From Phoronis australis (lineage: Eukaryota; Animalia; Phoronida), in NCBI GenBank assembly GCA_002633005.1, contig NMRA01000024.1, forward strand, positions 955,786-1,019,785: a stretch of DNA of 64,000 bases, in the 5' to 3' direction. Made by a program: the position numbers and the translations under genes. The number at the start of each line of letters is the position of its first letter. The first letter of the stretch is position 1. Under the pieces are notes generated by a model. That model was not told where the DNA came from. It saw only the letters and a program-made list of their open reading frames with translations, and did no database searches. This document shows, piece after piece, positions 15,743 through 45,420 of this stretch.

Positions 15743-18700
15743 ATGGCGACTTCCAGTGGAGCTGTTGATATGGAACTTAAAAAGGTAACACTGGATTTTT
15801 CTCACTATTCTTCTATCTCTGAGAACGTTGCTATGTGCAATAACAGACAAGAAAATATTAACTTTATTTCACTGAGAAGTGTACCGTTTCGTTTCTCCTT
15901 AGACGAGTCGGTTACCTGGTTCACTAGGCAATTAATTACATCGCCCTGGATCGGATGACTCCACACTACAGGCGTCCTCAGCTTCTGATCGTCCCCAATA
16001 CACTACATATAATACTACAAGGTATGACACTCCCGACACGGTGTCCTGTTCCGGCGACTTCGTAAGAAATTCGCAGTCAAAGAACAAAAATGTTCACAAA
16101 AAGCCCAAACACACTTCCATCTTGGACGGCTCGAGGTCAAGGACGGTACGGAAATTGCCAGTTTGTCGCGTAAAGTCACAATGTCGATAACGCCGTCCAT
16201 CTGTGGTTTGTTGAAACCTTGTTTTGTGCACAGGCGTCCTCAGCTTCTGATCGTCCCCAATACACTACATATAATAATACTACAAGGTAGGACACTCCCG
16301 ACTAGAAATTCCACGGGTGCTTCACTTCAGCCGTCCATAGCAAACATAAAACTCAATAAATTTACACAAAACAGGGGTTCAACGAACCATGAAGAATTGT
16401 TCTTTCTCCCAATACCATTCACAGTGTCCTGTTACGGCAACTTTGTAAGAAATTTGCAGTCAAAGAACAAAAATGTTCACAAAAAGCCCCCACACACGTT
16501 CTCCCTAGGCCCGTCGAGGTCAAGGACGGTACGGAAATTGCCGGTGAGTTACGGAAGTAGCGACATCGTGACTTTACGCGACAAAGCGGCAATTTCCGTA
16601 CCGTCCTTGACCTCGACGGGCCTAGGGAGAACGTGTGTAGGGGCTTTTTGTGAACATTTTTGTTCTTTGACTGCGAATTTCTTACGAAGTCGCCGTAACA
16701 GGACACCGTGAATGGTATTGGGGGAAAGAACAATTCTTCATGGTTTGTTGAACCCCTGTTTTGTGTAAATTTATTGAGTTTTATGTTTGTTATGGACGGC
16801 TGAAGTGAAGCTCCCGTGGAATTTCTAGTCGGGAGTGTCCTACCTTGTAGTATTATATGTAGTGTATTGGGGACGATCAGAAGCTGAGGACGCCTGTGGT
16901 TTTGTGTAAATTTATTGAGTTTTATGTTAGCTATGGAGGGCTGAAGTGAAGCACCCGTGGAATTTCTAGTCGGGAGTGCCATACCTTGTAGTATTATATG
17001 TAGTGTATTGGGGACGATCAGAAGCTGAGGACGCCTGTGGATGACGCAGGCATACAGGGGCTATAGACTACAGTACATTCCCACAAAAAGTTACGACTTT
17101 CAAAATACAGGAAATAAAATCAAATGGAACATGCATATATGCAGATGCAGTTAAAATTAACACATACCATTAGTCTGGAGACGGTTCAGTCAAGATAATT
17201 TGAACAAATTGATGAAAATCTGTTGCAATTTGCTCGAGTTTCTCTTACCGGGTGCCATTTCGAGGAAGTTACTGGAAATCACGCATCTTGAGGAATAAGA
17301 AGTCCAAGGGACACAAATCTTACAAATTTCACCTGATACCTTCCCATGCTATTTTGCAAGTGTCACGTGCCAGCATCACGCACTTCGCTCAGTCTCGCGC
17401 TAGTCTTTTCCTAACTCACGTGACTCAGTTGAAATACTTTGTGGTTATCGCGCCTGTGTTGAAAAAGTTAACGGTGACCAAAAAAGGGGAGTTGGAATTC
17501 TTCGCCAAAGTCACCATAATTCTCGTAACTAAGCTTCATCAAAGATATGTGTAGAAGTAGAAAGGACCACTGAAGAAAGTAAGCGCTTTTTAAGTGATAG
17601 CTTTAAGTGTGGAATGTATTTTTGACGTAGTGAAAACTCCTAATTGGTGGCCGGATTTGGCCTACCACCCATTTAAAATACACGGGACGAAATTCGTATA
17701 GAAAGCGATGGGAAGTATTGTAGCCCCTAACTGGCCAACCGAGGGACTACGTGTTGCCTACTGGATCACCAGACAAGAAACCAGCCGCCCGTTCAGTAAC
17801 GATAGGACCTCGGTAAAAAGCAAGACTTCGCGAGATTACGTGAGATATTGCCGTGTATTTTCAAAGAGTACACGTGCTTGTGGCTAGATTTTAGCTAGGT
17901 CCTAGCATAGGTCCTAGCGCTACTGAACGCACGCCAGGTCACTCACTTAAAAAAGTGTCAAAGTGACTCGGTCTCTGACCAACTTGAGTCAGTCTTAGTG
18001 AGTGTGCCAGTCCCAGATCATTAATCAAGCCTACGGTGCTAGTGAGTGATGGCTAGTATTCGACAAGTCCGAACTATCCAAAGTATTCCCTACTTGCACG
18101 GAAGCGTGTCGCTATGGCTATGCGGCTATAGCGTCTAAGACTAAATGTCGCGACCTCGCAAAACCAAGGCTGGACGTTCCACTTACATGGCCGTGGCTGA
18201 GCGCAGTGCGAGTTCACGGTGGTGATATTACCACATTTTACCATAGATTATAGACAACAGATTTGCAACTCATCGCCTTCGTATGATTCTGCATTGCTAT
18301 CACCAGACTGAAGCTCTTCTCCAACATTCATGACAAAAACCGACATCACAACTGATGGAAAATTGCATACACTCTCGTTCTTTGTTTCTATCCCAACCCA
18401 TTTTACAATTACGATTTAATCAGATTGTTAACATTTTAGTAAATTTATTAAACAATGTGGCATAATTAAGATGAGTAGCATGGTTGCTAGAGTTGGTGCA
18501 CACAAGACATTTTTCAAGTCACTCTGGATTTTGATTTAACATTCAGGCCTTACCCCTTGCTCTATATAACTGACGAGTCACTGACTTACAATTAACTGAC
18601 ATTTAAAAAAATGTGCAGGTGCCACCAGATTATGACTGTCACATGGGCATTTTAACTGCACAATTATCGAGCTGACTTGAGATATTGATAAGCCAGAGAG

Positions 18701-21700
18701 TGCGATCTTTTAATTGCAAAATCTTATTGTAAATTTGCCTCCAAGATCTCTTCTAATGCTATGAATCACCATGGATTCCATTCTCAGTTTAGCATCACTA
18801 GGTAATATATAAAAAGAAACTAAATCTTTATTTTCTTTCTTTTTGGTCGAGTTTTTGCTCTGTTGCACACAGCAGAAAACCCTGATCGCAAACCTGCAGG
18901 ACGTAGAGCGGTGCTTTTCAGTAACGTCATTCAAAGATGGCTTAAATGTGCAAGAAGAGAATACTATCATAGTGTTCTTTCTGGCATTGCGAGTCCCATT
19001 GTGAAGCCGAAGGGTCCAACAACTGTAGTGCTTCCTAGTAACAATTGTTTTTCTGCATCCAGAGCTGTAACAGTTAAATCCCTTGCAGGATCTCTGAGAA
19101 ATTTGCCAAGTATGTTTCTATGAACTTTGCAACAGACGAAAACTGTTTTTGGATTGATCGGACTACTGCTGTGCCTCGTAGTGGCATTTCTATTTCTTAG
19201 TGTATCTATGGCTCTGTTTAGATCATAGTTTCTGGATGGTTTTCATGAAAGTTGGCATACAGGTTTCAAGACCTTCCCATTTCAGACAGGTTTGACATAT
19301 TGTGCACCACCCAGTGGCCATTTCAGTAGTTCTTTTTTTGCCCACATTATCAAGAGTGAACAAATAATTAGCAAATTTGCTTTGAAGAAGTTAGAAACAA
19401 CTAAGTCTTTCATTTTATAATATGCTTAAGAAAAGATGCATGATTCTGCCCTGTTTAGGTTGCTCAAAACAAAAATCAAATTTGACACTTTTCTCCCATA
19501 AAATCATTTTTATCATATTTCTTACCATGATAGAATTCTATTTCCATTAGCAATAAAAACATCAAAGTCAACTCAAGAAAACTCTGAAGTTTACTAGGGT
19601 TGGCCAACCCTAAAATTGTGGATTAGAAAAATGGAGCATATACGCATTATCTTGATTTGAGGTGCTAGTTCATTTGGCAATAATTCATAACTGGATAGGC
19701 ATGGTAATTTTTAAAACCCACTTCATTTAAAAACTCAACATTGACAGGTAGACAGGGGTAAAGTTAAAACAGTGTCAATGAGATACTTGACCACCATAGA
19801 TACCGTATCTTTCCAGGTGTAACAACCCGACACCCTGTTTTCTTGTTTTTCTCTTCTATTGGGTAGCTCAGGCGTAAGCCCATTTTTCTGACACCTACAA
19901 CTGACCTCTTCTCATGCTTGTGCTTTGTGAGTAGGACTGTTTACGCAAAACTGCCTGGGAAAACAGATCCTGGCAGAATCGCAAAAACAAGTCAGTAGAA
20001 GCATCAATCCCGTTGTACTACCCGTTATACCTGTAATACCTGTCACGGTCAGGATCATTGGGGATATGCTGGTGCATTAATCCCCTCCCCAGACCATCCC
20101 TGTGATAGCAGAAGGTGCTGAGTTTGCCTGTCAGCATCTGATTTGACAACACACGGGCACGGCTCTTGTGAGTTGCCATAAGTAATACCGGCTTCGAGCA
20201 GTCGTTATCGTTATGGTACATCTACCCACGACTAGTCATTAGTAGTATTAAGCCCAATATGCGTGCACACAATAACATTGTAATAAGAACGTATTAACAT
20301 GTACTTAGTTCAGTGTTCGTGCTTCAGGCATTTCAAGATCTGCAAGCCAAAATGGTGGCCACTACTCAACAAATAAAGATCAACGACATGCAGGCTGACA
20401 GTCTTAGACGCCAGATTCAACACTCTAAACTTGTACAGAAGGAAATGAGCGATCTCCCGCAGAACACCAGAATGTATGAAGGAGTGGGTCGAATGTAAGT
20501 GCTTCTTGTGGTGAAGTATTGGATATGAAGAGATAAGTGAGATCATGCAACACCATGCAAAACTTCTTGTTAGTGAATGAAATTCCAGAGTGTTCAGTTA
20601 TCTCAAGACTTGACTTGCACACTCTAGCAAACTGGCTGCCAATGAAATTATTGGTCAAGGAGACTGATTCATAGAAATAGCCTGCAAGAAAAAATGCTAT
20701 ATGCATTCCATAAGCTAAGATTTCTTGCTGCAGGTGCCTTATTTGTGCGTAACACGTCCCTTATGTTTCAGGTATGGACCAAAGATAGCTATAATGTTGC
20801 AGGTCATTTACACTGTCATGGCCCAGTCCCCTCGATGCTCTCGATTTTGGAGCCAAATATTGGCCCATTCCCATTGAAAGTTATTTGAAAATTTTGCGAT
20901 ATTACCTCATCAGGCACAAAAGTTGCCTCCAATGCCCTCATTATTTCTTCTGCAAAATGCTACTTTTGGCTACTTGAGGCATTGCCGATGAGGTGTGCAG
21001 CCAGGGGGTGGAATTGGTGGTGATGAGAGGAGTGCCCAGTCTGCATTTATGCCAATAACCTGACACAAGAGGTGCTTATGCAGAGTTAGGTGCTACATTT
21101 CAGCTCTTATTCACATGGAGCTCTCCGCAACTGCCAACACAGAAGTTACTGACACAAAATCATTCATTGCCTGGTGCCTTTAATTGGTCAAATAACAGAA
21201 AGCAAATCAAATTGAACCTCCCATTTTGAGTATTCCTTGCATTCTATTGTTTATGTCTTGACACTGTGTCGTTTAGGTTTGTGCTGACACCTACCAACGA
21301 AGTTAAAAAACATTTAGAAGAAAAACAAGCGACGTCTGAAGAGAAGATCAAAAACTTAGAGGTAAATATTTGGTTGATTGGAGATGAATGCCTAAAGTTA
21401 CAGACAGCTGTAAGTGCATCTTTAGTCGCATTTACACGAGAGACAGCTGACACGGCGTAGCTGATCGAATAAAAGTGTGTCTTTAAACGCAACTGACACG
21501 GAGCAACGGCCAGTTTTTTGACACCGGTTTGATAGGTAGAGCGAGTTTCACTGGATCAGTTGCTCTAGTTTCAACTACACGTCTTGACACAACTGGGGCA
21601 GGTCGGAAAGAGATTATCTTTCATTGGGCTTGCGCAATAGTGTATATTGGGGTGATCAACTGGCATTCCACTTGGTTTGGACATTCGCTATTGTTTATAC

Positions 21701-22806: not shown

Positions 22807-24914
22807 TGCGCTGTGCAAGGACTAACTTTCAACTGGTTGGGAAAGCTTCAATATGAGTCTGACCTCAGGATCCAATCTTCTGTATTTAAGTGGATATTGA
22901 ATTTAACTTATTTTTTCTGTTTTCTGTGTAGTGCATAGTCAAGAATTGTTGATTTTGTGCTTAATGCGTGATACTTGTCTGCACTTCATGACCCCAACAT
23001 TAAAAGCTTCAGACTTCAGTTAGATTGTGAATTCTTGAGTTTAAAGATTATTTGCATGATCCTGGGTTTGCTGATGTATATCAGGAACTAAACGGCAATG
23101 CTATTTCAACATCATCTACGCTAAAAAAAGTGCAGTTGTATTCACTGACAACTTGTAAATGTGAAAACAAAAAAATCTGCATATAGGTGACCCTTGCAAT
23201 AATGACATAACTTGGGAGGTTACATAGCCCGCATCATGCCATGTTATTCCCCAGCACCACGTCTCGATACTTACTGGATACGGCCTAGTGGTCTCAGCGG
23301 ATTATTTTCAACATAAAACTCGTTCTTAAACACGTAATTTTCAACTTACTTCGCATTCACATCGTCACTATATGCTTCTAATTTGACCAAACCAACACAG
23401 AGATAAGAAATTAGGGTGCAAGTTCCAGTTTAAGCCCAAGCGTCTGAGTGCCACATTTGAACTTGTGTTGTGCACTGAACACTGTAAATCCTTATGCACT
23501 GGAGCACGCAGTCAAACCCATTTTCTTTTGAATATAGTTTGAGCTCAGTTGAAATTCTATTTCAAATTTCAAGATTTTGTCTCCTAACCTGATTGATTTT
23601 GCCTGTAGTGAGTGCTGAACTTTGATCTCTTGGCAAAAAGCAACAAACATCAGTCAGCCTAATACTCTTGTTTTAAAGTTGGTCAATATATTTTTTTATC
23701 ATTTTTTGATTATTTTGTGTTAATCAGTAAAAACAGTAAATCGCCAGGATATGCCCATGTTCATTTATCAGTGATTTGAAATTTTGTAATTTTACCTTCA
23801 ATAAATGAAATAGCAAACAAAAATTTCATTCTCTTAGCTTTTTATCGGTTATGTATAGTTGTTTTTGTCAGAATATTTGCATTTATAGCTGAATCTTTGT
23901 TGGCAAACATATTTAAAAGGCATCATCAAATCAAAATGCTATATTTCACTAAACTTTTTACATTTACATGACATTGTAATATTACACTTCATTACATTAA
24001 ATTTCATTAATAGAACAACAGCTACATATTTACAAATTCAATAATACATTCAGGAACGCATGCAAGCTAAATATATTGTCCTCTTTTCTATACACACAAT
24101 TGGTTGCGTTTCCACTGACCAGAGTGTGGGATCTGATCTTCAAATTCAGATTCAAAATTTAACCAATCGTGATGCATGATTGGAGTACAACTTTGTAAGT
24201 TTACTCGAAGTGTAACGTGCAATTGGTTAATTTTCAATCCCAGTACAGAGATTAGGCGGCAGGTGCAGGGGTCTGTTTCATGGAAAGTCAGAAATTTTAA
24301 CTATGTTCCCTCCGTAGAATTATTGGATAAAATTTTTGCTGGTAACAGTTAGCACATGAAAAAGAAATAAAAGTATTGGAGCAACTAGTAGTTCTGGGTA
24401 TCTTGAGTCAACCTGTACATTTGGTAAGGTGAGATTAAAAAGGCATGGAATGCGAAAGCTCGTAAAAAATATCTCTTAAACAATTCCTGTGGAAAGTACC
24501 ATCTCGCAACATCTACTACAGTTATTCACTTTCCCCTGGGAGAGAATTTCCAAAAAAATCACAAGATTCCCAATTTTTGAAACACGTGCGAAGGAAAAAC
24601 TCTGTAGTCACCACAGAGTTTCTAATCAACCTCCCACTTATGATAATGCGTGCATGCGCTCACAGTCATTGGACAAACCGCTGACTTACCAGATGGATAT
24701 AACGGCAGATTATCATGTGTGACCGCACTCCCAATCTGAGGTAGACGGCACAGTATGAGACAAGCAAGACTAGGTAGTAAATTTTGACGCTTGGGAGCAT
24801 GTTGGACGAATTTTAGAAGCCAGGTATCGGGAGTTCTCATGAGAGATTCAAATTTAGATGTCACAAAAGCGATCACTAAAGTACCGATCCCGAAGGTCTT
24901 GGTACGGCACTGCA

Positions 24915-26330
24915 AAACTAACACAACGTGGTATTCGTCCTCTACACATCCCGAATTACATAAATTTCATTTTTCATTGGGAATATTTGTGTGCCGACCT
25001 CTTTCTACTAGTAACGAATGATTTGAGCCTAGCAATCGAGTCAGAGATTGGATAAAACGTGGAGATTCCTTACAAAACTTGCCCAATTATAAGAAGACCT
25101 TCCCATCAAGTCTGACTGTCAGAAAAAAAGTGTATCGTCCGCTGACTTTACCCCACGATTACTAGGCATCCTCAGTATTTTGAACCAATATTTTATACAG
25201 GATACGAAATATTGAGTAAACAATGGGAATCGACCACATTCTCCCATGACTGCCGAGTTAGAGCAACAACTGCCTACTCCTAATATGCCTTTACAATACT
25301 TCATATGTACATTTTCCAATTGTTAATATTCCTTAACGCCCCATATCTCATCCAGCCTCGTAACACAAAGAGGTGTAAACCATTTTATCGAACAGGGGAA
25401 AGGCTATCGACGGAGGTAGATCCATGCGCGCACCTAGGGGGCTCGAGTTCGACCCCCACCCCATTTGGTGAATTGGGCAAAAAGGTCCGCCTCAGAGAAA
25501 CGAAAAGTCCGAGAAAACGAGACAAAAGTCCACTAAAACGACGCGAATAAACAATCCATAGCCGAACGTGGTACCCGGTGGTTTTTTTTTGGTCCCCGTT
25601 TTTTCTTTTAGTAAAAGGTCCATGTTGTCAGAAATTCGAGCCCCCCTGTATTTTTGGCTGGGTGCGCGCATGAGATCACGACATCTTCACTTTAATTTAC
25701 AAATTTCAGAGGCAGCTTTATTTGCTTGACTAGATAACGTTTTAAAGGCGTTGGTTCACAAAACTTAGGGTAATAAACCCGCCAACGTATTTGTAATGAA
25801 ACACAACATCGACTGAAGTTCCATCGTAGAACCATTTCTCAGGTCGTCTAGGGAGACTGCCATTTTTCAAAACGGCCACCTTAGTTTTCTTCAAGTTCAC
25901 TTACATGCCCATGATTCGCAAAATTCACAATTAAGCATACGTTGTAAGTTAATGGCGGTAGAGGAACACAACATCATGTCATCTGCTTACAGCAGGGAGT
26001 TAACTCTTGGCACTTGTTTGCTGAGATATGATGTGCTATTAATATTACTCTTCGCTGTCAGTCAATTCAGAAATTCGTTTAGATACAACAAAATAATAAT
26101 GACCTGGTCATGAAACCTGGCGAATACCAACAGTACAATCAAAGAACTCTGTAAGACCACGATCTTGAGGTTTCGTGCAAGTGCGTAATCTACCACTCAT
26201 AGAGCGAGGTATGCTGAAAATTTTAGCGTGCATATCAATATTTTTCAATCTATAGAAGAGTAAATTATGAGAGATTCGATCGAATGTCTTTGAGAAATCC
26301 ACGAAAGGCTGCGGCTTGAAGTCGCCATTG
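24915..26330 (-). mobile_element. Decayed LINE ORF2 (RT core plus C-terminal Cys/His motif), interrupted by a MITE
   Basis: Collinear fragments with stops and frameshifts: FVDFSKTFDRISHNLLFYRL, TEFFDCTVGIRQ, MKYCKGILGV..SNSAVMGECGRFPL, NHSLLVERGRHTNIP, CNSGCVEDEYHVVL. Confidence 0.85.
25423..25672. mobile_element. 250 bp MITE with 5 bp TSD (AGATC), inserted in the LINE remnant
   Basis: AGATC|CATGCGCGCACC ... GGTGCGCGCATG|AGATC, with a perfect 12 bp TIR. Confidence 0.88.
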
Positions 26331-26723
26331 TTTTTTATACGTGAAAGGTCACACTTTCCATTTAAGGAAATGAATTTCATCTATGTCTTGCCATACCAAA
26401 TAAGGAGACGTGCTTTGCTCTGTGGGAGAAAAATCAACGAATTGACTAGCAGTTGACATGTGGTTTTTTTAAATTAGAAACTAAAAGAAAAATGATTCGA
26501 CATAAACAGAAATTCGAAATCTTTACGAACAAACCGTAAAAATAGCAGGTCGAATTCTGTTTCATTGGCAGAGAACCACTTTGAATAATGCCATTTGCCA
26601 TTAAGTATTTTTTTTTCGCTTTCCAGGCCTCTTTAAATTGTCTTTCAGAAGTAGATGTGTAACTGTAAAAAAAATGTCCTGCTGTAAGTTACTTTTCGTG
26701 AAACATACCCCTGATGTCAGCGC

Positions 26724-29700
26724 CTACCAGTTGAAGGGTGAGGTAGCAGTGCTTAGAACAGTTGAGCAGGTGGTGGGTAAAAGTTCCCCAACTTCATTAA
26801 GAATCAGTCGCTGAGCTGACCCTTTCGCTGGTTGAGGTGGTTTGTCGGCTAAGGCAACGCACAGACGGCATGAGCTAACAGTCCATTGGTAGAACTGTGC
26901 AGATGCTGTGCATTTGTTTTTCAGTTGTCTTCCTGTGTACCCTTCCAGCATCTCAAGAACTCTTGCAGCTATCTCGGGCCGCAGGTGTCTTAGCCTGAAG
27001 TCACGAATCCGCTTTGGCAGCCCGACGTAGGTGCGCGTGCGCAAACTAGTGAGTAGTCCTTGGCACGCGACCCATTCATTTGTGTCGTCCTCGTGTGTGC
27101 CTAACATCAGCAAGGCTGCTCTGAAAACGTCGTGGACAGCGGTTGGTGGGTTCGTCTCCTCGCGAACTTTTGCCATTTGCTCCCTGTCCATGTTCAGTAA
27201 TCCGTCTCTCATGTCATTGAGCTTGGATAACTTATCCTTCAACCCTTTGGCCATTTTCAACTCTTTCTGAAACAACTCGCTGTCGCCGCATTCTTCTAAC
27301 TCCTGCACAACTTTTTGTAACTCGCTAGAGTCTTTTTGTTCTATAGCGTCCTTAAGCAGTTGTTTTCGATTCAGTGCCATAACTGTTGATTTTACGCGGG
27401 AAACTAATTTTTTATCCCTAACCAAGCCCCTATTTTCTTTTACAAAAGTTTCGTAGTTTGACAGAGCATCTGTGATATCGGAAAGAGACCCTGATCCCCT
27501 GACTTCTTGTAATTTAGTACTCAATCTTAGATGTTCGGCTATAACTTCTTTGCTAATTTTTCTTTCGATCTCTTCCAGCACGTGTTCAGTTTTATTTAGT
27601 AATAGTTCATCTTCTGTGCGCTCCTCTGCAGAGGCAACAAACGTTTTATACTGCTCGAGTGCCTCTAATATCGCCGATTTATCTACCTCTTGAAGCGCCG
27701 TTAGCAGCCGTTGTTTTCGTTTGTCGTTTTCGGCTAGTGCCGCTGATGGCCGCTTCTCGGATTTTTTCACTTTAGGTTTGAGCGTTTCGTCCAGAGAAAA
27801 CATGTCTCTGTTTTTCTCTACGAAACGCTTATAGTTTGCCCAAGATGTGCGCACGCTGTGAATATCGTCCCTCTTTACGTGTTTAAGTTCTTTTTTCAAA
27901 ATTTCATGCTCCTTGTGCATCTCATCTTCCACAGTTTTTAGATACTTGCTGCATTTCTTGGTAATCTTTTCATCAGGTTCGAGGCCCGCACCTTTAACTG
28001 CACTTTCATAATCAACCACCGCTTGTAACAAGGTTTGCCTATCATTTTCTTTTGTTGCCCGCTTTACCTTTCTTTTCAGACGATTTTCTGCGCTTTTGAC
28101 TACTTTATTTGCCTCATTTTGTAACCGCTCGTTTTCAATGGATTCTTGTGGAGCACTTTCCATTTCACCTTCGGCTTCATGGGCTGTTGTTTTTTCTCCA
28201 GTCGTGGTCTGTGGTGCACATAAATCGCCCTCTTGTTTGTGCGATTCAGTTTGTTGTGAAGAATATTTGTCAATTTCTGAGAATGACTTATCTATTGAAA
28301 CGTCTTGTTCTTCGTGGGAAGGAAATTTTTGGAGTTTGGTGGACGTTTTTTCACTTGAAATATCCACTTTGACGGACACGTCTTCTGACCACGGTGTTTT
28401 GTGTTTTTCTACCGATTCCGCTGAAGCTATTATTGTTTTTGACGCAGTTTTCTTGGGCAGCGTTGCTTCTGGCGGTATTTCATAGGATCGACGTTTTTCG
28501 TGTTCCATTAAAGCCTTCTCGACTTTCTTCGTTTCGCTTTTGGTGCTCCTTGTGGAATCACTTAGCTTCATTTTATCTTCTTGCATCTCATGTAAAAAAC
28601 TGTCGCTTTGGTGAAAAGTTACGTCAGATCTATTTTCTTCTGCGACCCCTGACCCATCAATTTTATCGTCCTTTTTGATGGAAACACCGCTTAAGACGTC
28701 ATTTATTGAACGCTGTTTCATTTCTGAGTCATCGCCCGTCTTGCTGTCGCGTCGCGATCCTTGTTCTGGACTTGTTCTTGTTTCATCAGTTGAAATGCTG
28801 GCCTCGGGTTTCCCAGCTAAGAGGTTACGCGCCTCTGATAAAAGAGCATTGTCGCACTGAACTTCATTTTTATGTTTCTCAGTAAACTCTTCGTAGTGGC
28901 ATAACGTGCGGTAAATTTGAGACTTGCTTGCACAAACAAGAGAACCCCTGAGGGCTTGAGAGATCGACTCGAACATAGCAGTGACATCTTTGACTCTTTG
29001 TATTATTTCTTTTACGTTCTGCAACAGAAATTCGTCGGCCGTGATAATCCCAGTGTTGTACTTAATAAAGTCCTCGTACTTTGCGCAAGCCATCTCAGCA
29101 TCTTCTAGTTTAGACCACAATGTAATGCCTTTCAGTTCCTCCTTTATCATCTCGTGTTCGTTGTCAAGATTTGCAACCCGCTGGACGTGTTCCTGGATTA
29201 TGATTTTGGCACATGAGATCAGTTGCTCGTCTGGATTCCATCCAATGCCTTTGCATTTCTTCTCATATTCTGCTATCGCAGATTTGATTAGATTTATGTC
29301 TCCAGAAGCCTTTGCAGTCTTAAGTTTTTCAATACTATTGTTAATTAAAGCTTCATTTTTCTCACAAGTTTTCAGTACTTTGACAGCCTCGGACATCATT
29401 TTTTTGTCTAGGCGCTGTTTACTTCCTGTTTTCTCCAGTTCTTCATATTCCGATAAAAGGACTCGCAAATCTTCAATATTTTGTTGTTTCATAGCCTTCT
29501 TTAAATTTGCTGTTACTTCGTCAAATCGGCGCTTCTTATCTTCTTGTGCAACTATGTTTTCTAACGCCCTCCTGGTTTCGTTTATGAAATTTTTATCTAT
29601 AATTTTTTCATTTGCGTTTGTTTCAGCAAAAATTTCCATCTTTGATAAATTTGATCGAAGAAGGTCGGATTTCTGAGCTTCGATCGCCGTGTTGATTTCA

Positions 29701-32700
29701 TTCTTGAGAGACATGTACTCTTTTGCAAGCTCTTTTTCTTTCTTTTCCAATTTCAGAACTTCACTTTCACCTTCTTCTATAAGTTCGTTTTGCATGTCGA
29801 TGTTCATATCCACTATGTCTTTGCTATGATCGTTGAAAAAGTTTTTGTACTTCAAGCAAGCCATTTTAATCTCTGACTTTTTTCCTTCTTTCAGAGCATT
29901 TTCCAAATCCTGCGCCAGAGGTGTTGCTTCGTCTATCAACTTTTCACGATTTGCTTTTAACTGATCAAGTCTTTTCTTGACGTCTTGAAGCAGCTCTTCA
30001 TCAGGCCAGACAAAGTCGTTGTTCTGTTTGATGAAGGTTTGGCAACGTACTACAGTCTCGTTTAGTACACAAATATCTCTCGTTTTTTTGGCCTTAGTCA
30101 TCAGATTCTTCAACTCTCCATATTCTTTTGTCAAAAATTTCATACGTGTTTTTAATTCATTGACTAGCCCATTTGCTTTCTTTATAAGCTTTTTATCCAC
30201 GACCTCTTCGTCTAAGTTGGAGTAAGTAACCAATGTCTTACTGATATCGTCTATGTTTTGTGTTTCCATGGCTTGTCGTAGAAGAGATTCTTGTTCTTTT
30301 GCCAGAGCCCCTTGTCTTTTAGCTTGCAGCCTTAAAGCGTCTGCGGCACTGGAAAGTAGTGCTTCGTCTACTGGTACTTTCCCGCCTTGACGTTTAAGAA
30401 AACCTTCATACTTGGATAAACATTCTTTTATTTCTTTAACACCAAGAGAAAATACAGCGAGGCGCAGATTTTCTTTCAATTTTCTCTCAGTACGGATATT
30501 TTCTTTGTCTAGTTCAAGTAATAGTTTTTCTGCGTACTGCAGTACCGCCTCGTCACTCGGCCCTGCAATTTCCCTGAAATTTGTTAGTGCAGATTTGATC
30601 AAAAGGCAATCGCGTAATTTCACAGCATTGTTCAGTTCACGTTTGACGTCAACATTTCTTTGTTCTTCCAACCTGTTTAAAGTTGATTTGACCGAGTTCA
30701 TCAGCTCGGTATCGTCAATGCAGATTCCAGGATTCTGTTTCCGAAATGCTTCGTAATTTCCAACTTTCAATCGAAGATCACTCAAAACAGGTTTCCTTAG
30801 TGCCACGGCTAGAGCATCAACTACCTCCTCATATCGCTCTTCATCATCTTGTCTAGCTGAATTTGTTGTTTCAACACATTTATGGGCTTCGTCTATTAAC
30901 GTCTCATTCATCAAGTGTTCGCATCCATTGTCTTTGGCATAGTGTCTATAGTTGTGTAGTTCAGCGTTTACTTTCATTCCGTTTTTTGCTCTAATTGCAT
31001 CTTGTATCGGTTTTTCGAACACTTTCAGATCTTCACGGCATTTTTCTTGAAGGGAATTTAGAGTGCTTTGTGCTGCTTTTACCAGTGTCCCGTTAATGGT
31101 AATTTTGTTTGTGTTTTCGTTGGCGAATGCTTCATAATTACGTAGTGATGTTTCCAGCCGTCTTACGTTTTTAATGCAAAGCGAATCCGTTAGTAGCTTG
31201 CTTAGCTCTGTTTCTTTGTGTTCTCTCTTTTCCTTAAAGCCTTGCAAAATTTCATCTGCGCTGTCGACAAGTGTCTTGTCAAGATGCTTGCAGTCACTGT
31301 ATTTTAAGCAGTACTCTCTGTATGCTGCAAGCGTGATGACAATGTCGTCTTCATTGGTTAAATACACTGCATCCAACAGTTCTAGTTTCAGGCGCTCTCC
31401 CTCTGAAATTTCGTTTAATCTTTGCGTAGCAGATGTCGTTTTCTCCACCAGATCGTAATCTGCCGCTAAGGAATTGTTTTTGTCTTGGAATTGTTTGCTT
31501 TCTGTCAAATCACCAACCGTGTTGACAGAAATCGCTGCGTTTTTACGCGCTTCAATTTCTAATGAAACATCGCCCCATTTCCCCTTTTCTGTCAGTATTT
31601 CCTGTGCCTTGTTCATGAGACTATGATCAAGGTTACCCGTATCATACAACAGCACAAAGTCCTGATATTCGTAGATAGCTTTCTCGAGATCTTCCACATT
31701 TTCTGTTGACAAAGCTTTTTGTAAAGTCAAATTTATTTCAGCGATTGCATTTTCGTCTCCATCTGTCTTTGCCTTATCGGGAGTGGCAGTCTCTCTCTCT
31801 GCGTAATCATTCTCCTCGTTGGATGCAAATGACCGCTCTGCGGTTTCCTCCTGACTTCCATTTGATTGCTGTTCGTCCATTTCGATAACGGTACTTACTC
31901 TTCTGGACTCTTTGCGGTGCCCTGGGCTTCCGAGTTGCGATCGTAGGTCCATTTTTTCGTACTGTGCTTGAGCACGCGAAACCAAGATACTGTCAATAGA
32001 AATGTCGCTGCCGTGTTTTTGGCCGAACGACATATAGTTTTCTAGGGCTTGCAACACTTCTTCTTTTTCTCCTACGTACAGCGTGTCTTCCAGTTTGTTC
32101 TTCAATTCCATTTCCTGTTCTATTTCAATGTCTATGATATCGTCGACAATGTCCTGTGCTGTTTGTAGCAGTTCGAAGTCTATGTCTGCTTTGTGTTGTA
32201 TTCCAAAGTTTTTGTAGTTGTACAGACCTCTGCGTATCGCCATTTCGTCATTTGACAGAAGCGCTTGTTCTAGTTCTTCTCGAAGCTCGTTTTCTCGTAA
32301 AGCTTTGTTCTGGTGCTCTTCTGCGCTTGTTCTGGCACTCATAGCTTCTAATAGTTTTTCATTTTCTCGAATAAAATCGTCGGAAAAAACGGACGCCCTC
32401 CATGTTGACTCAAAATCCGTGGATAGCCGTTTCACTTCCCGCTTCGTTGTCCACTCAAGCTCTTTTACCAACTGTTTCGACTGCATGATTAACCCCTTAT
32501 TAATTTTCACAAGACCATTGTGTTCTCTTTCAAAATTTTCGCATTGCTCGATCTTTGCTTTGATTTTTTCTGCATTGTTTGTTTTCAGTACTTTAATTAA
32601 GCTTAGCTGCTGCTGTTTTACTTTGCCTTGCAGTTTCATCGTCTGTTTTTGTTTTAGTATATTTTTTGTAGCTTGCACAAACTTCGTCTCAAAGGAGGCA

Positions 32701-34817
32701 CTCCTTGATGGTGGTAACGCTAGCTTTTCATATTTTTCAAGTGCAGCTCTCATTTTAGTTTCCTTGCCAGATATTATCGCTCTGACAAATTCTGCTTTTA
32801 ATAATTTCTCCTCAGCTGTGCAATTTCTGTCCCAGTCTTTGATGTTTTCTTCTGTCATCTCAACTAAACTGTCATTCAACGATACCCTTCTCCTTTCCCC
32901 GAGTTGCCTGTACCTCATCAACTTGATCCTTGCTGAATATTCGTTATTTTTCTCTAGAGCTTTTTGTAGTTGCTGCTCCAGCTGGTTTGCTTGTTTCTTA
33001 GCCGCTTTCGTTCTAGCTATCATTTTCATGATTCTGTTAAGTATTTCGGGAATTGTAGGACATTTGTTGTACTTAAGTCCGATAGCATAAAAGCAGATTA
33101 GAAATGTGCTGAAGACTAATATCAAACCAAGTGGCAATGCCCATGCAGCTGGGCTTGTGGAGAATTGCACGTAAAAGCTTCTTGTGAGCTTTTCACCGGT
33201 GTTGTAAGCCGAGCCATGCAACAAGGGTCTTACGACACATGTATAAATTCCTGTGATAGCGTCTGTGTTTTTCTCATCGATACTTCTTTGCACATTAATG
33301 ACGAGAATGCTCTTGTTGGACCTAAAGGTGATGTATGGTGAATCGTCATCTTCCGCAATGTCGTTGTTTTGACATTCTTCAAGAGTAACTTCCCTACACC
33401 ACGTGACGGCCGTGCGTTCTCTTGGATCTAACACTTTCTCGCAATTCATTTCAAATACTTCAGTACTTTCAGTAACTGTTACCTCTTCAGTGAGGATATG
33501 GTCCTCGCCGTCCGCCCACTTCAATGGAGATAAGACGAGAAGATACGTAGATGATATGATCGTGCCCAGTTTGTTGCTGATGGAACACTGAATCAGTGCA
33601 GAGTCATTCTTTGTGACAGCCTTCAGAGTGAGGGTTGACCGCTCCACTTTGTGTCGCGTTGAAGGTCTCAATTTGTCTCCGTTTATATACCATACTATAT
33701 TTACTGGTTTTAATGTGTTTCGATCCTCTTCACATTCGTAAAACACGTCGTTTCCAACTACTGTCTTTTTATCTGTCAGTTTTTTTCTTGGAGAGAACAC
33801 CGGCGGAAACACAACTTGAATGTGAACGACTGCTCTGGCAATTAATTCCTTTGTGGCTGGATGTCGTCCCTCACAGGTGTATCTTCCTGTGTGTAGAGCC
33901 TCGGCATTTATACCTAGCAGCTCAATGGAAGCTTCCGTGTTCACTCTTATCTTAGCTTTGGGTATTCTGTTGGGGTACAACCATGTGATATAGGGCGTTG
34001 GGTTCCCAACGAAAATGCACTTTAATGAGAATGAAGTTCCCGCGGTAATCTGTTGAGTGTCTTTGGGTGCATAGACCAAACGTTGTGATTCCGTTAGTGA
34101 CGGACCAGGTATCCCTTGTAGTGTGTACCTATCCAGTCCAACTTTCTGCGTAATCTCCTTGTTGACCTGGAAACATGCCAGTGCTCTTTCTCGAAGTTTT
34201 TCAAAATCTTTAGTTGTAGTATGAGCTATGATAAGAGAACCGTTGTCTGGTCTAATAGACATCCGATTGGTTTCCACCAGTTCTTCGATCTCCGTTGGGT
34301 TAAAACTCTCTCGTGTCATCCACGACCACGTGAAGATTGGATTTGGAGGGTGTTGCTCACGAATCGGTGTGCATGGAATTTCTACCTTGGCGCCAAGTTG
34401 AACTCGCATCACTTTGTTTGTAGGTTCATACTGTCGAATGTAGTAAACGTCTATTTGCGACAAAAAAGATAAGTCTCGCCCAAATGCATTGGAAGCAAAG
34501 CACCGGTAACTCAACTTGTCTTTGTTACCAATGTTCATAAAGTAAAGTGTACTTCCTTGTTCGTTTGAGGTGTACATTATTTTGGGTATTGGGAACGCCG
34601 TTCCATTTCTATATATTTTCTGCCAGCTGTACTGGATTGGCGGTGTACCTTCAGCTTTACACGAAATCCTTAAATTTTGGTTGTAATGGGCTCCAATTTT
34701 GGCACGAGGTTGCTGTATGATTCTGGCGGGTTGGCCTACCTCCATTCCTGACTGAAGATTTATCAGCATCTGGAACCAAAGAACAAAGTGACACTGTATT
34801 AAATTACAGAATGTCAT
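26724..34817 (-). CDS. 2697 aa single-pass membrane protein: 5 Ig-like domains, TM helix, long helical-repeat cytoplasmic rod, C-terminal dynein-MTBD-like domain
   Basis: Uninterrupted 8094 nt ORF. Ig signatures: ISCKAEGTPPIQYSW...YRCFASN, LKCIFVGNPTPYITW...TGRYTCEG, YECE..IVWYING...DSALIQCSISN, TGIYTCVV. Hydrophobic WALPLGLILVFSTFLICFYAIGL at about 33075-33146. The start is uncertain: ATG 34817 gives a plausible signal peptide, but there is also an acceptor-like TTCTTTGGTTCCAG before ATG 34769. Confidence 0.9.
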   Translation of the reverse strand: MTFCNLIQCHFVLWFQMLINLQSGMEVGQPARIIQQPRAKIGAHYNQNLRISCKAEGTPPIQYSWQKIYRNGTAFPIPKIMYTSNEQGSTLYFMNIGNKDKLSYRCFASNAFGRDLSFLSQIDVYYIRQYEPTNKVMRVQLGAKVEIPCTPIREQHPPNPIFTWSWMTRESFNPTEIEELVETNRMSIRPDNGSLIIAHTTTKDFEKLRERALACFQVNKEITQKVGLDRYTLQGIPGPSLTESQRLVYAPKDTQQITAGTSFSLKCIFVGNPTPYITWLYPNRIPKAKIRVNTEASIELLGINAEALHTGRYTCEGRHPATKELIARAVVHIQVVFPPVFSPRKKLTDKKTVVGNDVFYECEEDRNTLKPVNIVWYINGDKLRPSTRHKVERSTLTLKAVTKNDSALIQCSISNKLGTIISSTYLLVLSPLKWADGEDHILTEEVTVTESTEVFEMNCEKVLDPRERTAVTWCREVTLEECQNNDIAEDDDSPYITFRSNKSILVINVQRSIDEKNTDAITGIYTCVVRPLLHGSAYNTGEKLTRSFYVQFSTSPAAWALPLGLILVFSTFLICFYAIGLKYNKCPTIPEILNRIMKMIARTKAAKKQANQLEQQLQKALEKNNEYSARIKLMRYRQLGERRRVSLNDSLVEMTEENIKDWDRNCTAEEKLLKAEFVRAIISGKETKMRAALEKYEKLALPPSRSASFETKFVQATKNILKQKQTMKLQGKVKQQQLSLIKVLKTNNAEKIKAKIEQCENFEREHNGLVKINKGLIMQSKQLVKELEWTTKREVKRLSTDFESTWRASVFSDDFIRENEKLLEAMSARTSAEEHQNKALRENELREELEQALLSNDEMAIRRGLYNYKNFGIQHKADIDFELLQTAQDIVDDIIDIEIEQEMELKNKLEDTLYVGEKEEVLQALENYMSFGQKHGSDISIDSILVSRAQAQYEKMDLRSQLGSPGHRKESRRVSTVIEMDEQQSNGSQEETAERSFASNEENDYAERETATPDKAKTDGDENAIAEINLTLQKALSTENVEDLEKAIYEYQDFVLLYDTGNLDHSLMNKAQEILTEKGKWGDVSLEIEARKNAAISVNTVGDLTESKQFQDKNNSLAADYDLVEKTTSATQRLNEISEGERLKLELLDAVYLTNEDDIVITLAAYREYCLKYSDCKHLDKTLVDSADEILQGFKEKREHKETELSKLLTDSLCIKNVRRLETSLRNYEAFANENTNKITINGTLVKAAQSTLNSLQEKCREDLKVFEKPIQDAIRAKNGMKVNAELHNYRHYAKDNGCEHLMNETLIDEAHKCVETTNSARQDDEERYEEVVDALAVALRKPVLSDLRLKVGNYEAFRKQNPGICIDDTELMNSVKSTLNRLEEQRNVDVKRELNNAVKLRDCLLIKSALTNFREIAGPSDEAVLQYAEKLLLELDKENIRTERKLKENLRLAVFSLGVKEIKECLSKYEGFLKRQGGKVPVDEALLSSAADALRLQAKRQGALAKEQESLLRQAMETQNIDDISKTLVTYSNLDEEVVDKKLIKKANGLVNELKTRMKFLTKEYGELKNLMTKAKKTRDICVLNETVVRCQTFIKQNNDFVWPDEELLQDVKKRLDQLKANREKLIDEATPLAQDLENALKEGKKSEIKMACLKYKNFFNDHSKDIVDMNIDMQNELIEEGESEVLKLEKKEKELAKEYMSLKNEINTAIEAQKSDLLRSNLSKMEIFAETNANEKIIDKNFINETRRALENIVAQEDKKRRFDEVTANLKKAMKQQNIEDLRVLLSEYEELEKTGSKQRLDKKMMSEAVKVLKTCEKNEALINNSIEKLKTAKASGDINLIKSAIAEYEKKCKGIGWNPDEQLISCAKIIIQEHVQRVANLDNEHEMIKEELKGITLWSKLEDAEMACAKYEDFIKYNTGIITADEFLLQNVKEIIQRVKDVTAMFESISQALRGSLVCASKSQIYRTLCHYEEFTEKHKNEVQCDNALLSEARNLLAGKPEASISTDETRTSPEQGSRRDSKTGDDSEMKQRSINDVLSGVSIKKDDKIDGSGVAEENRSDVTFHQSDSFLHEMQEDKMKLSDSTRSTKSETKKVEKALMEHEKRRSYEIPPEATLPKKTASKTIIASAESVEKHKTPWSEDVSVKVDISSEKTSTKLQKFPSHEEQDVSIDKSFSEIDKYSSQQTESHKQEGDLCAPQTTTGEKTTAHEAEGEMESAPQESIENERLQNEANKVVKSAENRLKRKVKRATKENDRQTLLQAVVDYESAVKGAGLEPDEKITKKCSKYLKTVEDEMHKEHEILKKELKHVKRDDIHSVRTSWANYKRFVEKNRDMFSLDETLKPKVKKSEKRPSAALAENDKRKQRLLTALQEVDKSAILEALEQYKTFVASAEERTEDELLLNKTEHVLEEIERKISKEVIAEHLRLSTKLQEVRGSGSLSDITDALSNYETFVKENRGLVRDKKLVSRVKSTVMALNRKQLLKDAIEQKDSSELQKVVQELEECGDSELFQKELKMAKGLKDKLSKLNDMRDGLLNMDREQMAKVREETNPPTAVHDVFRAALLMLGTHEDDTNEWVACQGLLTSLRTRTYVGLPKRIRDFRLRHLRPEIAARVLEMLEGYTGRQLKNKCTASAQFYQWTVSSCRLCVALADKPPQPAKGSAQRLILNEVGELLPTTCSTVLSTATSPFNW

Positions 34818-35341
34818 GCTTTTTAGGAAGTCAGCGACACAACGTGTCTTGTTTGATGATGTGATCTCGTGAACCGAATAGTGCGCGTGTAGTCGACGCT
34901 GCTTTGTGTTGGCCTTACCTCAAGTCTTTTTTACACTACTGGAAGTCTATATTGGGGAATTTTCGTGTACAAACACTGGTACATGTATGTATTTTGTTGC
35001 TACTGTTTTGTCTCTGTCCTTTTGTATTCTTAAGCAGAGTCTTTTTTCAGTGGTTGCGATGCGATTCTGAAGAAAACCTTTCTCTGATCGCGCAGGCCTA
35101 CATTGCAAATACCCTTTGTTGTACTGTCGTATTTTTACATTTTGTGTCAATACTTTCGACATTGGATGTACGTTGTCATATTTCGGTATTTGTAACTAAA
35201 ACTTGCTGAGTATGCTGCCCGTTGAACAAATTAACAAAGTAAACGTTTTTCATATGCGTGACATGCAAATTACCTTTCCGATTTCGATAAGAATTTGAAA
35301 ATGTAGTGACGACTCACACTTCACATTGATGCGGCAACAGT

Positions 35342-35641
35342 CATAGGCGGATTTAGGGGGGGGGGGGCCTGCCCCCTTGGCTGCCGAAAAAAAATAAAAG
35401 ACCAAGAGCGTGATGAAATATTGAGTTGATTAACTAACCACGATAATTAACATGCGGCTGATACTGATTTCACAATGTCTGCTGTTTTAGATCGTGCGTG
35501 CGTAAGAATCGGTTCGCCGTTTTCTTTTTTGTAATCCGCGCCCTTCACAAATTCGAGTGCACGCGAGCGTCCTTTGCCCTTCGCGCGGTTCCCCGAGGCA
35601 AAATGTTGGGCCCCCCTAATGGTATCCTAGATTTGCCACTG
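35342..35641. mobile_element. 300 bp MITE with 5 bp TSD (ACAGT)
   Basis: ACAGT|CATAGGCGGATTTAGG ... CCTAGATTTGCCACTG|ACAGT. Confidence 0.75.
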
Positions 35642-38018
35642 ACAGTCTCCACCTAACTGTGGACAAATCCGCCCTCGGGAGTTAAGATGGCTCCAAGGGA
35701 GGAAACTAATACATTGATATTTGTTCTATCTGCTAGACTGAAACTCACCGCCGTTGTCATCTATCCAAGTCGTCACCACCTCCTCCTGTACCAATCGACA
35801 CCACTTTCAACATCGGGTTGAAACTTCTTACCAGTGAATTTGTATCGTTTTTGCAGTTGAAAACGCAGCTTCGGGGTTATTGTTGAATGAGACAGACTTC
35901 TTGGTGTTATTGGCTTTGACCCGTCAGAGCTGCAAGACAACCGAAACCGTTGACTTTGTGATTTTATTACAAATGTTCAATTCCTGCCCCTGCTGGTCAG
36001 TTTTCTATGAAGTAAATTCACCGAAAAGGTGTTTTTTCGACTAGCCTTCGACATTGGTCAGTCTGTAGCGTTCACTTTTTTAGTGCTGCAACACAATACA
36101 ACCCTGCGCATTACAACCATGTTCTTCCCATTTCTTGTCCACCTTCTACATTTGAAGGTCCGTAGCGGAGGAGGCAGCCTTAAGAACATGAGTAATGTTT
36201 CACCAAGATTTTACGAAGAGAATGAGGACCGAGGCCCAACGCAGACGGATACTTGGGAGCTGGTCTTTCTGCCTCAAGTGAGCTGTGAGCTGTTAGCGCT
36301 GCACCAACTGGAGATGTGAAATGATGAACTGGATGACTAGGCTAATCTAGCCGTTCTTCAGCTCAGCTACGGTTCAATTGAGACAAATAATTCAGATTGT
36401 ACCTATCCGCCTGAGCTGGCCCTGAAGTCAGGATTCACTTCATAATGGTCCAGTTTGGGAAAGTTCATTTTATTACGTTCCTGCTTTGAACGTATATTTT
36501 GATAGGGTGTTGTTCCGGGGGCCTGCTACGCTGCTTGTGGGACTATTTCAAATTTCCCGTGGACCAGATTCTGCGCTCGGTCCTACTGTAGGGTTACACC
36601 TTGTTTTGAAATTGGGTGCGTGAGCCATAAGATGTTCTGTGTGCATGGGAGCGGCAAAAAAACGACTCGGTTTTGCAGAACGAAAATTTCTTGCGCAATA
36701 CTACCGGAAACTAAAAAACATCAAGAAAGTGCAACGGCAAACAATCTTCCAAAGTTAATGAGCATCGCGTTAAATTTGGTTTAAAGACTCTATTCCTTTC
36801 AAATTTCCTTTTGTAGTGAATTTAAACCACTAATCTAATTTCTAAACTATACATATCTTGTCCGAGTTTCATTTATATCATTGAGAGTTATTTCAGATAG
36901 GCAAAAATCGTCTAGTGTGCTTTGCTGTTTGGGGATCGGATGATAGATATTTTTCCAACTTCAAACTGCAACTAATTTCACTGGATCATCGTCAGCTCTT
37001 ACAAGATAAGCTTCCAATTGTCAAAAAATTAACTATGAATCAATTGATTGTCGGATAGTCACATAAGCATGTGAATCAGAAACAAAAAAATCTTTTTTAT
37101 GAAAACAGAATATTATACTTAAGTAATTCCCGAAGGCAAGTTCGTGGATTCTTAACAGCCAACCGGTGGGGAATATGGGAGACAGGGCATCCCACGGGGC
37201 TTGGGGGGAGGGGGGGGCTCCCCAAGAAATTTTACGAATTCATTCGTGTTACGTGTATTTTGGTTCATTCCAGAGGTAGTTGTTACGGTTGAAACGTGAA
37301 CTCCAAAAATCTCTGAAATATTTTTTATGATTGACAGTACATGTACTTTGAGTACTTTAAGACGTTAGATATTCACTCTGCATAAGGACATCAAAATCGT
37401 ACCCCGACAGTGTGTTCGATATGTGCGAATTTCTCAGAAAAAAATATTCCTAGTAACACTTTTCAAAGGAAATACTATTCTTATGATACAGTGAGAAAAC
37501 TATTGACGTACTATCGTTATAAAAACGTCGGTAATATTCCTTTTGTGAAATTCACAAAAGTAGTGGTGGTCAAATTCTTCAAACTTCCGCCCTTTCGATG
37601 GCGTACTATCCTATTGTGTATTTCAAAGCAATTATTTTGGTTGTTTGGACGGAATGTCAGATCTTTATACTGCTGCTCCTTGCACGATTTTTTGATGAAT
37701 TTGTTATCTTATGTTCTCCCCTCTTGAATAGTTGACAGTGCCGGATTTACAGAAGGACAGAGTTGGAATTGCCCCAGGCCCTCCCTTCGAGAGAAGACCC
37801 CGCCTGGAAGGGGATCTCTTTATGTAAAAGGGTAATCATTAAAAGTGGCAAAGATTGACAGCTAATTCCATCATCATGTGACTTTCTAAGAAGTGACTTT
37901 CTTAAATTTTTTTTTTGCGATTTCACAAAAACAGGACACTAAAGTCAATCGATTCCATCTTTGGACTCTCTCTTCGTGAACGTCCCTTTAAAGTGGAAGT
38001 TCCAAGCTAATTCCTTAT

Positions 38019-38172
38019 CAGTGGCGGATTTAGAGGGGGGCCAAGAGGGCCATGGCCCCCCTAAAATTCTGCATTCTCCTTTTGGCAGTTCGGGGGTGCG
38101 AATGTCTGACGGGCAAAATCCTGGCTAATACTCGGCCCTGCCCCCCAACTCAAAATCCTGGATCCGCCCCTG
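38019..38172. mobile_element. MITE with CAG termini and 5 bp TSD (CTTAT)
   Basis: CTTAT|CAGTGGCGGATTTAG ... CTGGATCCGCCCCTG|CTTAT. Reverse-complement homolog of 14840-14984. Confidence 0.88.
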
Positions 38173-45104: not shown

Positions 45105-45420
45105 CACAGGCATCCTCAGCTTCTGATCGTCCCCAATACACTATGTATACACTACAAGGTATGACACTCCCGACTAGAAATTCCACGGGTGCTTCACTTC
45201 AGCCGTCCGTATCAAACACAAAACTCAATAAATTTACACAAAACGGGTTCAGCAAACCATTAGCAATTGTTCTTTCTTCTAATTCCATTAACGGTGTCCT
45301 GTTCCAGCAAGTTTGCAATAAGTTCGCGGTCAAAGCACAAAATCTTACCAAAAAAGCCACACGTACTATCTACTTTGACACACAGAAATTGTCAATTTTT
45401 CACGGAAAGTCACGACATCA
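45105..45420. mobile_element. Single diverged arm of the 16229-16898 foldback family
   Basis: CACAGGCATCCTCAGCTTCTGATCGTCCCCAATACACTA...GACACTCCCGACTAGAAATTCCACGGGTGCTTCACTTCAGCCGTCC matches the left TIR. Confidence 0.85.

Follow-up and report, generated by a model that had tools for sequence, protein, structure and literature searches.

The large open reading frame (ORF) on the minus strand of a 64,000-nucleotide stretch of Phoronis australis DNA (assembly GCA_002633005.1, contig NMRA01000024.1, positions 955,786 to 1,019,785; hereafter the window) ends in a helical head that is almost certainly a true homolog of dynein heavy chains' microtubule-binding domain (MTBD), standing without the motor. 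This ORF, by far the longest of the window, runs uninterrupted over 8.1 kb with 2,697 codons and a stop, and a stop-free frame of such length is not attributable to chance in DNA of 40% G+C. An initial annotation, made from the letters alone, had placed a stand-alone MTBD-like domain at 26870-27205; the peptide it described is indeed present as aa 2538-2650 near the 3′ end of the ORF on the minus strand, where it is covered by the head and the helix preceding it. As to the protein as a whole, we predict, with about an even chance of being right, a type-I membrane protein that carries the motor-less MTBD homolog as a passive microtubule-binding head. The parts of the gene on which the main finding rests are the following.

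26724..34817, minus strand: the large ORF, the whole gene body as far as visible (open frame; RNA from runs X5 and X6).
27195..27269, minus strand: long helix into the head, aa 2517-2541, counterpart of the dynein stalk helix CC1 (helix 38-62 of the head model; predicted local distance difference test, pLDDT, >92).
26847..27191, minus strand: MTBD-like helical head, aa 2543-2657, counterpart of dynein helices H1-H6 (profile, hidden Markov model (HMM) and fold).
26727..26846, minus strand: C-terminal tail of 40 aa, aa 2658-2697, with low model confidence; the stop lies at 26724-26726.

When the last 258 aa of the protein were compared as a single sequence with the PDB using phmmer, 26 sequences were retrieved at E<=10, 21 of them dynein heavy-chain constructs; the best 13 are all dynein (best E 0.012) and five of the 26 are unrelated. 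We aligned the window's piece with 40 short relatives that are 19-31% identical to it (alignment A1), which displays an invariant Pro and Trp together with near-invariant Glu, Gly, Phe and Trp. With the profile of these 41 members, all 55 PDB sequences found at E<=0.01 are dynein heavy chains, as judged by name or by length (>4,000 aa), the yeast MTBD being the best (E 7.4e-13), and relaxing the threshold to E<=10 added only more dyneins and coiled-coil noise. Among 5.8 billion proteins the A1 profile also retrieved P0208, a dynein-2 fragment with motor Pfam domains (E 8.2e-8), whose MTBD scores 52.9 bits against a family HMM made from other proteins only. The family HMM made without the query gives the window's domain 135.6 bits (E 1e-41), while the best of 200 shuffles reached 4.6 bits and the reversed sequence 4.3 bits. 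The head keeps the core residues of the family, namely the invariant P2557 and W2582 and the near-invariant G2573, F2642 and W2645. Dynein MTBDs (the middle of PF12777; 3err, 5ayh, 6rzb, 6kjn, 4rh7) have the same head fold and core residues, and what they hold in common with the family comprises E-[IL]-[RK] in helix H1 (family), Pro-Pro, LLG, the Trp in H3 and F-x-x-W in H6. In the consensus given by the initial annotation, the match to 'E+KS..NPP' coincides with the region where this copy diverges most (KVREETNPP here versus EIRSYsxPP in the family). Dynein-2 recurs among the nearest single matches (4rh7 on top in phmmer, P0208, and one family member automatically named 'dynein 2-like'), so that the sequence comparisons give a lean, and only a lean, towards it as the nearest dynein class.

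The AlphaFold2 model of the head, computed on A1, has a pLDDT of 87.0 and a predicted template modelling score (pTM) of 0.77, its confidence dropping only at one loop and in the tail. Compared with 48,161 PDB representatives independently of Foldseek, it returned dynein MTBD or stalk structures in the top five places (Z 17.3 to 11.5), led by the mouse dynein MTBD/stalk chains 3err_B (Z 17.3 over 148 aa, 3.3 A) and 5ayh_A (Z 17.2), while unrelated helical proteins have Z <=7.4. In Foldseek, ranks 1-26 are all dynein and the isolated MTBDs align with template modelling scores of 0.66-0.70 at 2.7-3.2 A. The initial annotation had proposed as checks a dynein MTBD as top PDB match and a fold superposing on it, and profile, fold comparison and Foldseek ranking all delivered this. 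The alignments to the mouse stalk begin at model residue 29-30, equivalent to dynein 3262, and a long CC1-like helix lies ahead of the head as in the dynein stalk; unlike in dynein, this CC1 counterpart doubles in the head model as the last helix of a helical repeat, the final partial one of a repeat array described below.

As a separate observation, several non-dynein PDB chains also align with the head model (7jtk_C, Z 11.7; 9fqr_Xl, 10.3; 9ya2_L, 9.5-9.7; 9e5c_2e, 8.3; 7jrj_I, 7.4). They come from radial-spoke, sperm-axoneme, Toxoplasma intraconoidal-microtubule and trypanosome doublet structures and may be further non-motor MTBD-like folds; in the Toxoplasma structure paper, dynein is named solely in the reference list.

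No motor accompanies the head. Pfam detects only immunoglobulin (Ig) families and no AAA or dynein family in the ORF, the Walker A motif G....GK[ST] is absent from it, as the initial annotation had noted in stating that the frame holds no AAA or P-loop motif, and no AAA or dynein family was found in 150 of the 151 flanking stop-to-stop frames of at least 55 aa between 12 and 48.5 kb. A dynein heavy chain has a ring of six AAA+ modules with P-loops, a linker and a tail, whereas this protein is without AAA ring, linker and tail and the flanks do not hold the ring either. Likewise, the dynein stalk is antiparallel, CC1 leading in and CC2 leading out, whereas here only the CC1-like helix is present: H6 ends at model residue 178, the pLDDT is 48-54 beyond about residue 180, and the stop follows, with no returning helix CC2.

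We then mapped RNA-seq reads of three runs with the same species label (X5, X6 and X7) over 22-40 kb. In X5 and X6 the entire ORF is covered about 1.5-5x deep by reads whose first mate lies on the plus strand, while X7 has no reads on it. At the GT..AG junction 34984>35857, which belongs to a plus-strand transcript and served as strandedness control, first mates lie on the minus strand; the first mate is thus antisense to the RNA in these libraries and the large ORF is therefore transcribed from the minus strand. No splice joints were listed within it in X5 and X6, at a low depth that could miss rare ones. The coding strand is strongly A-rich (AT skew on the plus strand -0.27 to -0.32). In the sequencing-run index no RNA run is among those matching the window, and four DNA runs contain 82-91% of its sampled words, these being of one sample and study that is possibly the assembly's own source. 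Beyond the stop, reads oriented like the ORF run on for about 3 kb (23800-26700) at equal or higher depth, with 7-9x at 23.8-25.6 kb; this signal is either a long 3′ untranslated region or repeat-derived.

The head belongs to a family. When 1.84 billion cluster representatives were searched exhaustively with phmmer, 180 clusters matched at E<=1e-3, of which 20 matched at E<=1e-10. Lengths range from 79 to 2,303 aa among the 150 matches listed and none of these is dynein-sized, which bears out the statement in the initial annotation on orphan MTBD-like domains in uncharacterised invertebrate proteins, with at least 150 of them no longer than 2,303 aa. A search for longer forms with the family profile returned a single protein, the dynein fragment, although a blank in that search is weak evidence. 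The domain is terminal: in 98 of 107 full-domain matches it is followed by no more than 89 residues (median over the 107, 22). The head of the window sits in the same position with 40 aa after it, and one or two helical units upstream are common in the alignment. Because the head is terminal in the family as well as here, the missing CC2 is a family trait. In all 64 longer members scanned, motor Pfam families are absent. Ig-like_KY was found in 36 of the 64, mostly with Transglut_core; two others carry CLCA with VWA, two VWA alone, three CARD on KY domains and one LRR, and matches to CD20-like and EF-hand families fall under their cut-offs. The CLCA/VWA members carry a transmembrane helix, and 14 of the 150 matches listed have hydrophobic spans, so membrane-anchored versions recur. 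Of the 41 A1 members, 15 match PF12777 at E<=0.01, and databases therefore partly flag the dynein similarity; among the 64 longer members P0039 passes the cut-off (26 bits) and P0140 stays below it (18.9 bits).

Source names were looked up for 30 family representatives. The named members come from bivalves, gastropods, annelids (Ridgeia, Owenia), Lingula and three Branchiostoma species, as well as from tunicates (Styela, Clavelina) and sponges (Oscarella, Sycon); six clusters have metagenome or read-assembly sources only, and none of the names looked up is from a vertebrate, arthropod or nematode. The proteins are called 'uncharacterized', 'hillarin-like', 'KY' or 'kyphoscoliosis peptidase' and 'CLCA-like', while one abalone member of 356 aa was automatically named 'cytoplasmic dynein 2 heavy chain 1-like'. 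We found no account of motor-less MTBD families in the full-text literature, the coverage of which excludes subscription journals. The window's protein resembles the family in its terminal head, in the helical units before it and in the membrane anchoring of some members; it differs in its Ig ectodomain and 24-fold rod, which occur in none of the 150 matches listed. What is presented here is a known fold in a motor-less, terminal and widely fused form, carried in this case by an otherwise unmatched Ig-transmembrane-repeat protein.

The remainder of the protein is laid out as follows.

34746..34817, minus strand: N-terminus, aa 1-24, moderately hydrophobic (mean Kyte-Doolittle 0.92).
33153..34745, minus strand: predicted ectodomain, aa 25-555, with about five Ig-like domains (Pfam and Cys pattern).
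33069..33152, minus strand: sole predicted transmembrane helix, aa 556-583 (its hydropathy over 19 residues reaches 2.41).
27282..32984, minus strand: repeat rod, aa 612-2512 (self-trained HMM, 25 domains).
28083..28793, minus strand: acidic, Ser/Thr-rich low-complexity insert in the rod, aa 2009-2245, with no repeat detected.

The first 24 residues are a possible signal peptide; alternatively, an acceptor (ttccag/cttcag) in this region would join the frame to an upstream exon encoding the signal peptide. Several Ig families pass their Pfam cut-offs on the ectodomain (Ig_3 6.7e-29 and I-set 8.4e-24, also Ig_2 and ig). Three matches to a strict C...W...C pattern lie at aa 53-106, 267-315 and 459-527, and two more Cys pairs were recognized by eye. 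The only strongly hydrophobic span in the whole protein, aa 556-583, is directly followed by a basic juxtamembrane stretch, KYNKCPTIPEILNRIMKMIARTKAAKK, and because of this succession we predict a type-I topology with the Ig part outside and the C terminus in the cytoplasm. Full-length search of the protein retrieved only 17 Ig-superfamily proteins (perlecan, Dscam2 and MXRA5-like) at a query coverage of <=17% and no full-length ortholog, which split or unannotated models could let escape. A word-indexed search with aa 2480-2697 yielded none at E<=0.01 among 677 candidates.

The rod consists of 24 full repeats of 57-62 aa and one partial repeat, the full ones having i-E values of 1e-10 to 1e-19 with a self-trained HMM. 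The motif reads L..AL..x..L..AL..Y..F....D..L...A...L. An AlphaFold2 model of two repeats (pLDDT 94.3), computed on an alignment (A3) of 11 non-overlapping two-repeat units that all come from this protein, shows helices in the order short-long-long and a 35-residue helix that is continuous between repeats. From the model the repeats are predicted to form a rod, which at about 3 nm per repeat, as estimated from helix lengths, would extend to about 70 nm if straight. The repeat has no Pfam match, Foldseek of the two-repeat model against the PDB gave no fold match (best E 0.27) and the best Atlas score, 0.80, is at chance level; we regard this helical repeat of about 60 aa as previously undescribed. 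In the MTBD-like family the repeat HMM gives weak single matches beside the head in 11 of 150 proteins. The insert, with 50 D/E, 36 K/R, 35 S and 20 T in 237 aa, is predicted from its composition to be disordered. The repeats are also interrupted, over shorter stretches, at aa 961-1026 and 1081-1141, and all three gaps are acidic and Ser/Thr-rich.

In the mechanism that we propose, the Ig part would face out, with the repeats and the head in the cytoplasm, and the head would be kept at a distance from the membrane by the rod. Its binding to the tubulin lattice would be of the dynein kind, yet constitutive, because there is neither a CC1/CC2 registry shift nor an ATPase to switch affinity. In this way an adhesion or receptor module on the cell surface would be tied statically to cortical microtubules. 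In dynein, MTBD affinity depends on the registry of the stalk helices CC1 and CC2, as reportedly described by Lacey et al. The initial annotation had suggested that the domain was co-opted as a static anchor, and we consider this a reasonable suggestion for the present copy, with about an even chance of being right.

The residues that contact tubulin offer the closest view of this proposal. In Nishida et al. 2020 (PMC7042235), six salt-bridge residues of the yeast MTBD are named (K3117, E3122, R3124, R3152, R3159 and R3201), and mutation of each basic one lowers affinity more than two-fold. These residues were mapped through the alignment of the A1 profile with yeast dynein, in which all six letters stand at the stated numbers, and compared with a column table of 118 family domains.

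K3117: basic in 20% of the family (Gln in 52%); R2545 in this copy, charge kept.
E3122: Glu in 99% of the family; K2550 in this copy, charge reversed.
R3124: basic in 85% of the family; R2552 in this copy, charge kept.
R3152: basic in 35% of the family; V2583 in this copy, charge lost.
R3159: basic in 12% of the family (next column 62%); T2590 in this copy, charge lost.
R3201: basic in 12% of the family (previous column 50%); N2634 in this copy, charge lost, with K2633 just before it.

The positions best conserved in the family are E (99%), R/K (85%) and Y (88%) in H1, P (99%), G (93%) and W (98%), as well as S (88%), F (89%) and W (97%), and this copy has R2552, P2557, G2573, W2582, F2642 and W2645 among them. 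The core is preserved, the divergent parts being H1 and the beginning of H6. The two best-conserved polar residues of H1 in the family are the counterparts of yeast E3122 and R3124, and the conservation of these two contacts is the best argument that the family keeps using a dynein-type surface. Other basic residues lie nearby in this copy (R2593, R2595, K2602, R2603, K2633 and K2635), and one may speculate that K2550 and E2554 are a swapped pair on one helix face.

Several observations weigh against reading the head as a passive microtubule binder on a type-I membrane protein. Charge is retained in this copy at only two of the six yeast positions named above, with the reversal at E3122 and the losses at R3152, R3159 and R3201, and further differences from the family are Y->E2554, G->R2593 and S->C2636. 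In the family itself, four of the six positions are basic in just 12-35% of the 118 domains, with 50-62% in neighbouring columns. A head without CC2 could be locked in the low-affinity state, because the affinity of an MTBD depends on stalk registry. PF12777, against which the initial annotation had proposed to compare the domain, does not match the window's own sequence even at E<=1 (its gathering cut-off is 24 bits), and the Foldseek E-values are weak (best 1.6e-3, none <=1e-3). The low RNA depth over the ORF is insufficient to define the 5′ end, and the signal peptide together with the 5′ end leave the membrane topology a prediction. The same residues feed the explanation that the fold is dynein-derived and microtubule binding has been lost, the head now being a docking head for another partner or a structural cap, which we hold to be rather unlikely. 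It draws on the poor conservation of four of the six salt-bridge positions in the family, one of which is reversed and three uncharged here, yet H3 contacts vary even among bona fide dyneins such as that of Dictyostelium (PMC7042235), so that their loss is weak evidence, and the best-conserved polar residues of H1 are precisely two yeast tubulin-contact residues. The family has a basic cluster of its own, 'L-K-R-R' at query positions 122-124, which is 55-80% basic where the aligned yeast dynein has none, and this suggests that a different surface is under selection; no result, on the other hand, indicates an alternative partner. It can further be said for lost binding that the normal control of affinity is missing, there being neither CC2 nor ATPase, and that the partner domains (transglutaminase-like, CARD and VWA) are not classical microtubule modules.

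Two other explanations concern the homology itself. The head could be a remnant or misplaced exon of a dynein gene, in the form of a pseudogene, an assembly chimera or a gene-model artefact, since MTBDs are otherwise known from dynein heavy chains and a pipeline gave the dynein 2 name to the 356-aa member. We consider this very improbable: the head shares a single stop-free frame of 8.1 kb with the Ig domains, the transmembrane helix and the 24 repeats, RNA cover is continuous in two runs without joints, the sampled words are found in four DNA runs (with the reservation on their origin made above), ORF and flanks hold no AAA or dynein Pfam family, and more than 100 relatives in many phyla have the same ending. 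A dynein-gene remnant is thus largely refuted by the one-frame ORF, the RNA, the flanks and the relatives. The likeness could also be that of a generic helical bundle or coiled coil met by chance, given that the single-sequence E against the PDB is just 0.012, that Foldseek never reaches E<=1e-3 and that middling Z-scores are common for helical proteins. The profile, however, finds dyneins only at E 7.4e-13, the Z-score is 17 over a background of about 7, the invariant Pro, Gly and Trp are the same as in the aligned dyneins, and 135.6 bits stand against 4.6 bits for the best shuffle. Profile and fold results rule out a chance helical match, whose probability we put at practically nil.

The homology of the head to dynein MTBDs would also admit a broader evolutionary proposal, which we make tentatively and rate somewhat below an even chance. 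The stalk tip may have been copied from the motor early in animal evolution and have become a portable, ATP-independent microtubule anchor on receptors, on scaffolds of the KY/hillarin transglutaminase-fold type and on CARD proteins in sponges, lophotrochozoans, amphioxus and tunicates. The present gene would be the extreme case, in which one polypeptide reaches from extracellular Ig domains through a rod of about 70 nm to the microtubule, a tether of a kind not described before. A functional analogy is that to spectraplakins (MACF1/Shot) and CLIMP-63, where a long helical-repeat rod has a microtubule-binding module at its far end. The predicted repeat topology resembles the spectrin-repeat principle of a continuous helix between units; spectrin repeats, however, have three helices in about 106 aa, whereas those found here measure 57-62 aa and have no spectrin Pfam match at E<=1. 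The modules differ as well, being Gas2/GAR in spectraplakins and an unrelated cytosolic microtubule-binding segment in CLIMP-63, whereas the head described here is dynein-type, and unlike in that comparison the protein is itself predicted to be transmembrane with an Ig ectodomain.

To our knowledge, the dynein MTBD has been treated in the literature as a motor part whose affinity is set by stalk and ATPase. If the microtubule-binding reading is true, the family would add a new, non-motor class to the microtubule-associated modules of animals and would open a first route to the function of hundreds of invertebrate proteins that lack annotation and are now called 'KY/hillarin-like' or 'uncharacterized', while this protein would be a one-piece link from extracellular Ig adhesion to microtubules. 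The family would likewise be a natural experiment on how an MTBD behaves without switching, and even without microtubule binding it shows a motor part re-used for another purpose.

Several other features lie in the window. On the plus strand, frames 20298-20495 and 21230-21457 match the N- and C-terminal halves of Prefoldin_2 (E 1.4e-8 and 9.7e-6) and are the only real Pfam matches among the scanned flanking frames; 20298-21457 is probably, from these matches, a two-exon prefoldin subunit gene converging on the 3′ end of the large ORF. Further away, at 49636-63612 on the plus strand, exons of an OATP/SLCO-type organic anion transporter were found, four frames matching successive parts of the Pfam OATP family (E 1.5e-45 to 7.4e-12) and one more matching Kazal_2. 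The plus-strand GT..AG junction at 34984-35857 skips 872 bases and is carried by 4 and 6 reads in two RNA runs, which indicates a spliced transcript diverging from the start of the large ORF; the frames around it match no Pfam family. An interspersed repeat with copies in both orientations occupies 16028-17060 (both strands) and 45068-45547. Its peptide motif 'LPTRNSTGASLQPS..NIKLNKFTQN' occurs twice within 16.4-17.1 kb, and its frames have no Pfam match besides one weak chance match. Finally, RNA piles up to about 30x at 23120-23175 and 38040-38390, with many loose ends and with 'opposite strands' joints connecting both places, which are inverted copies of a transcribed repeat outside the large gene.

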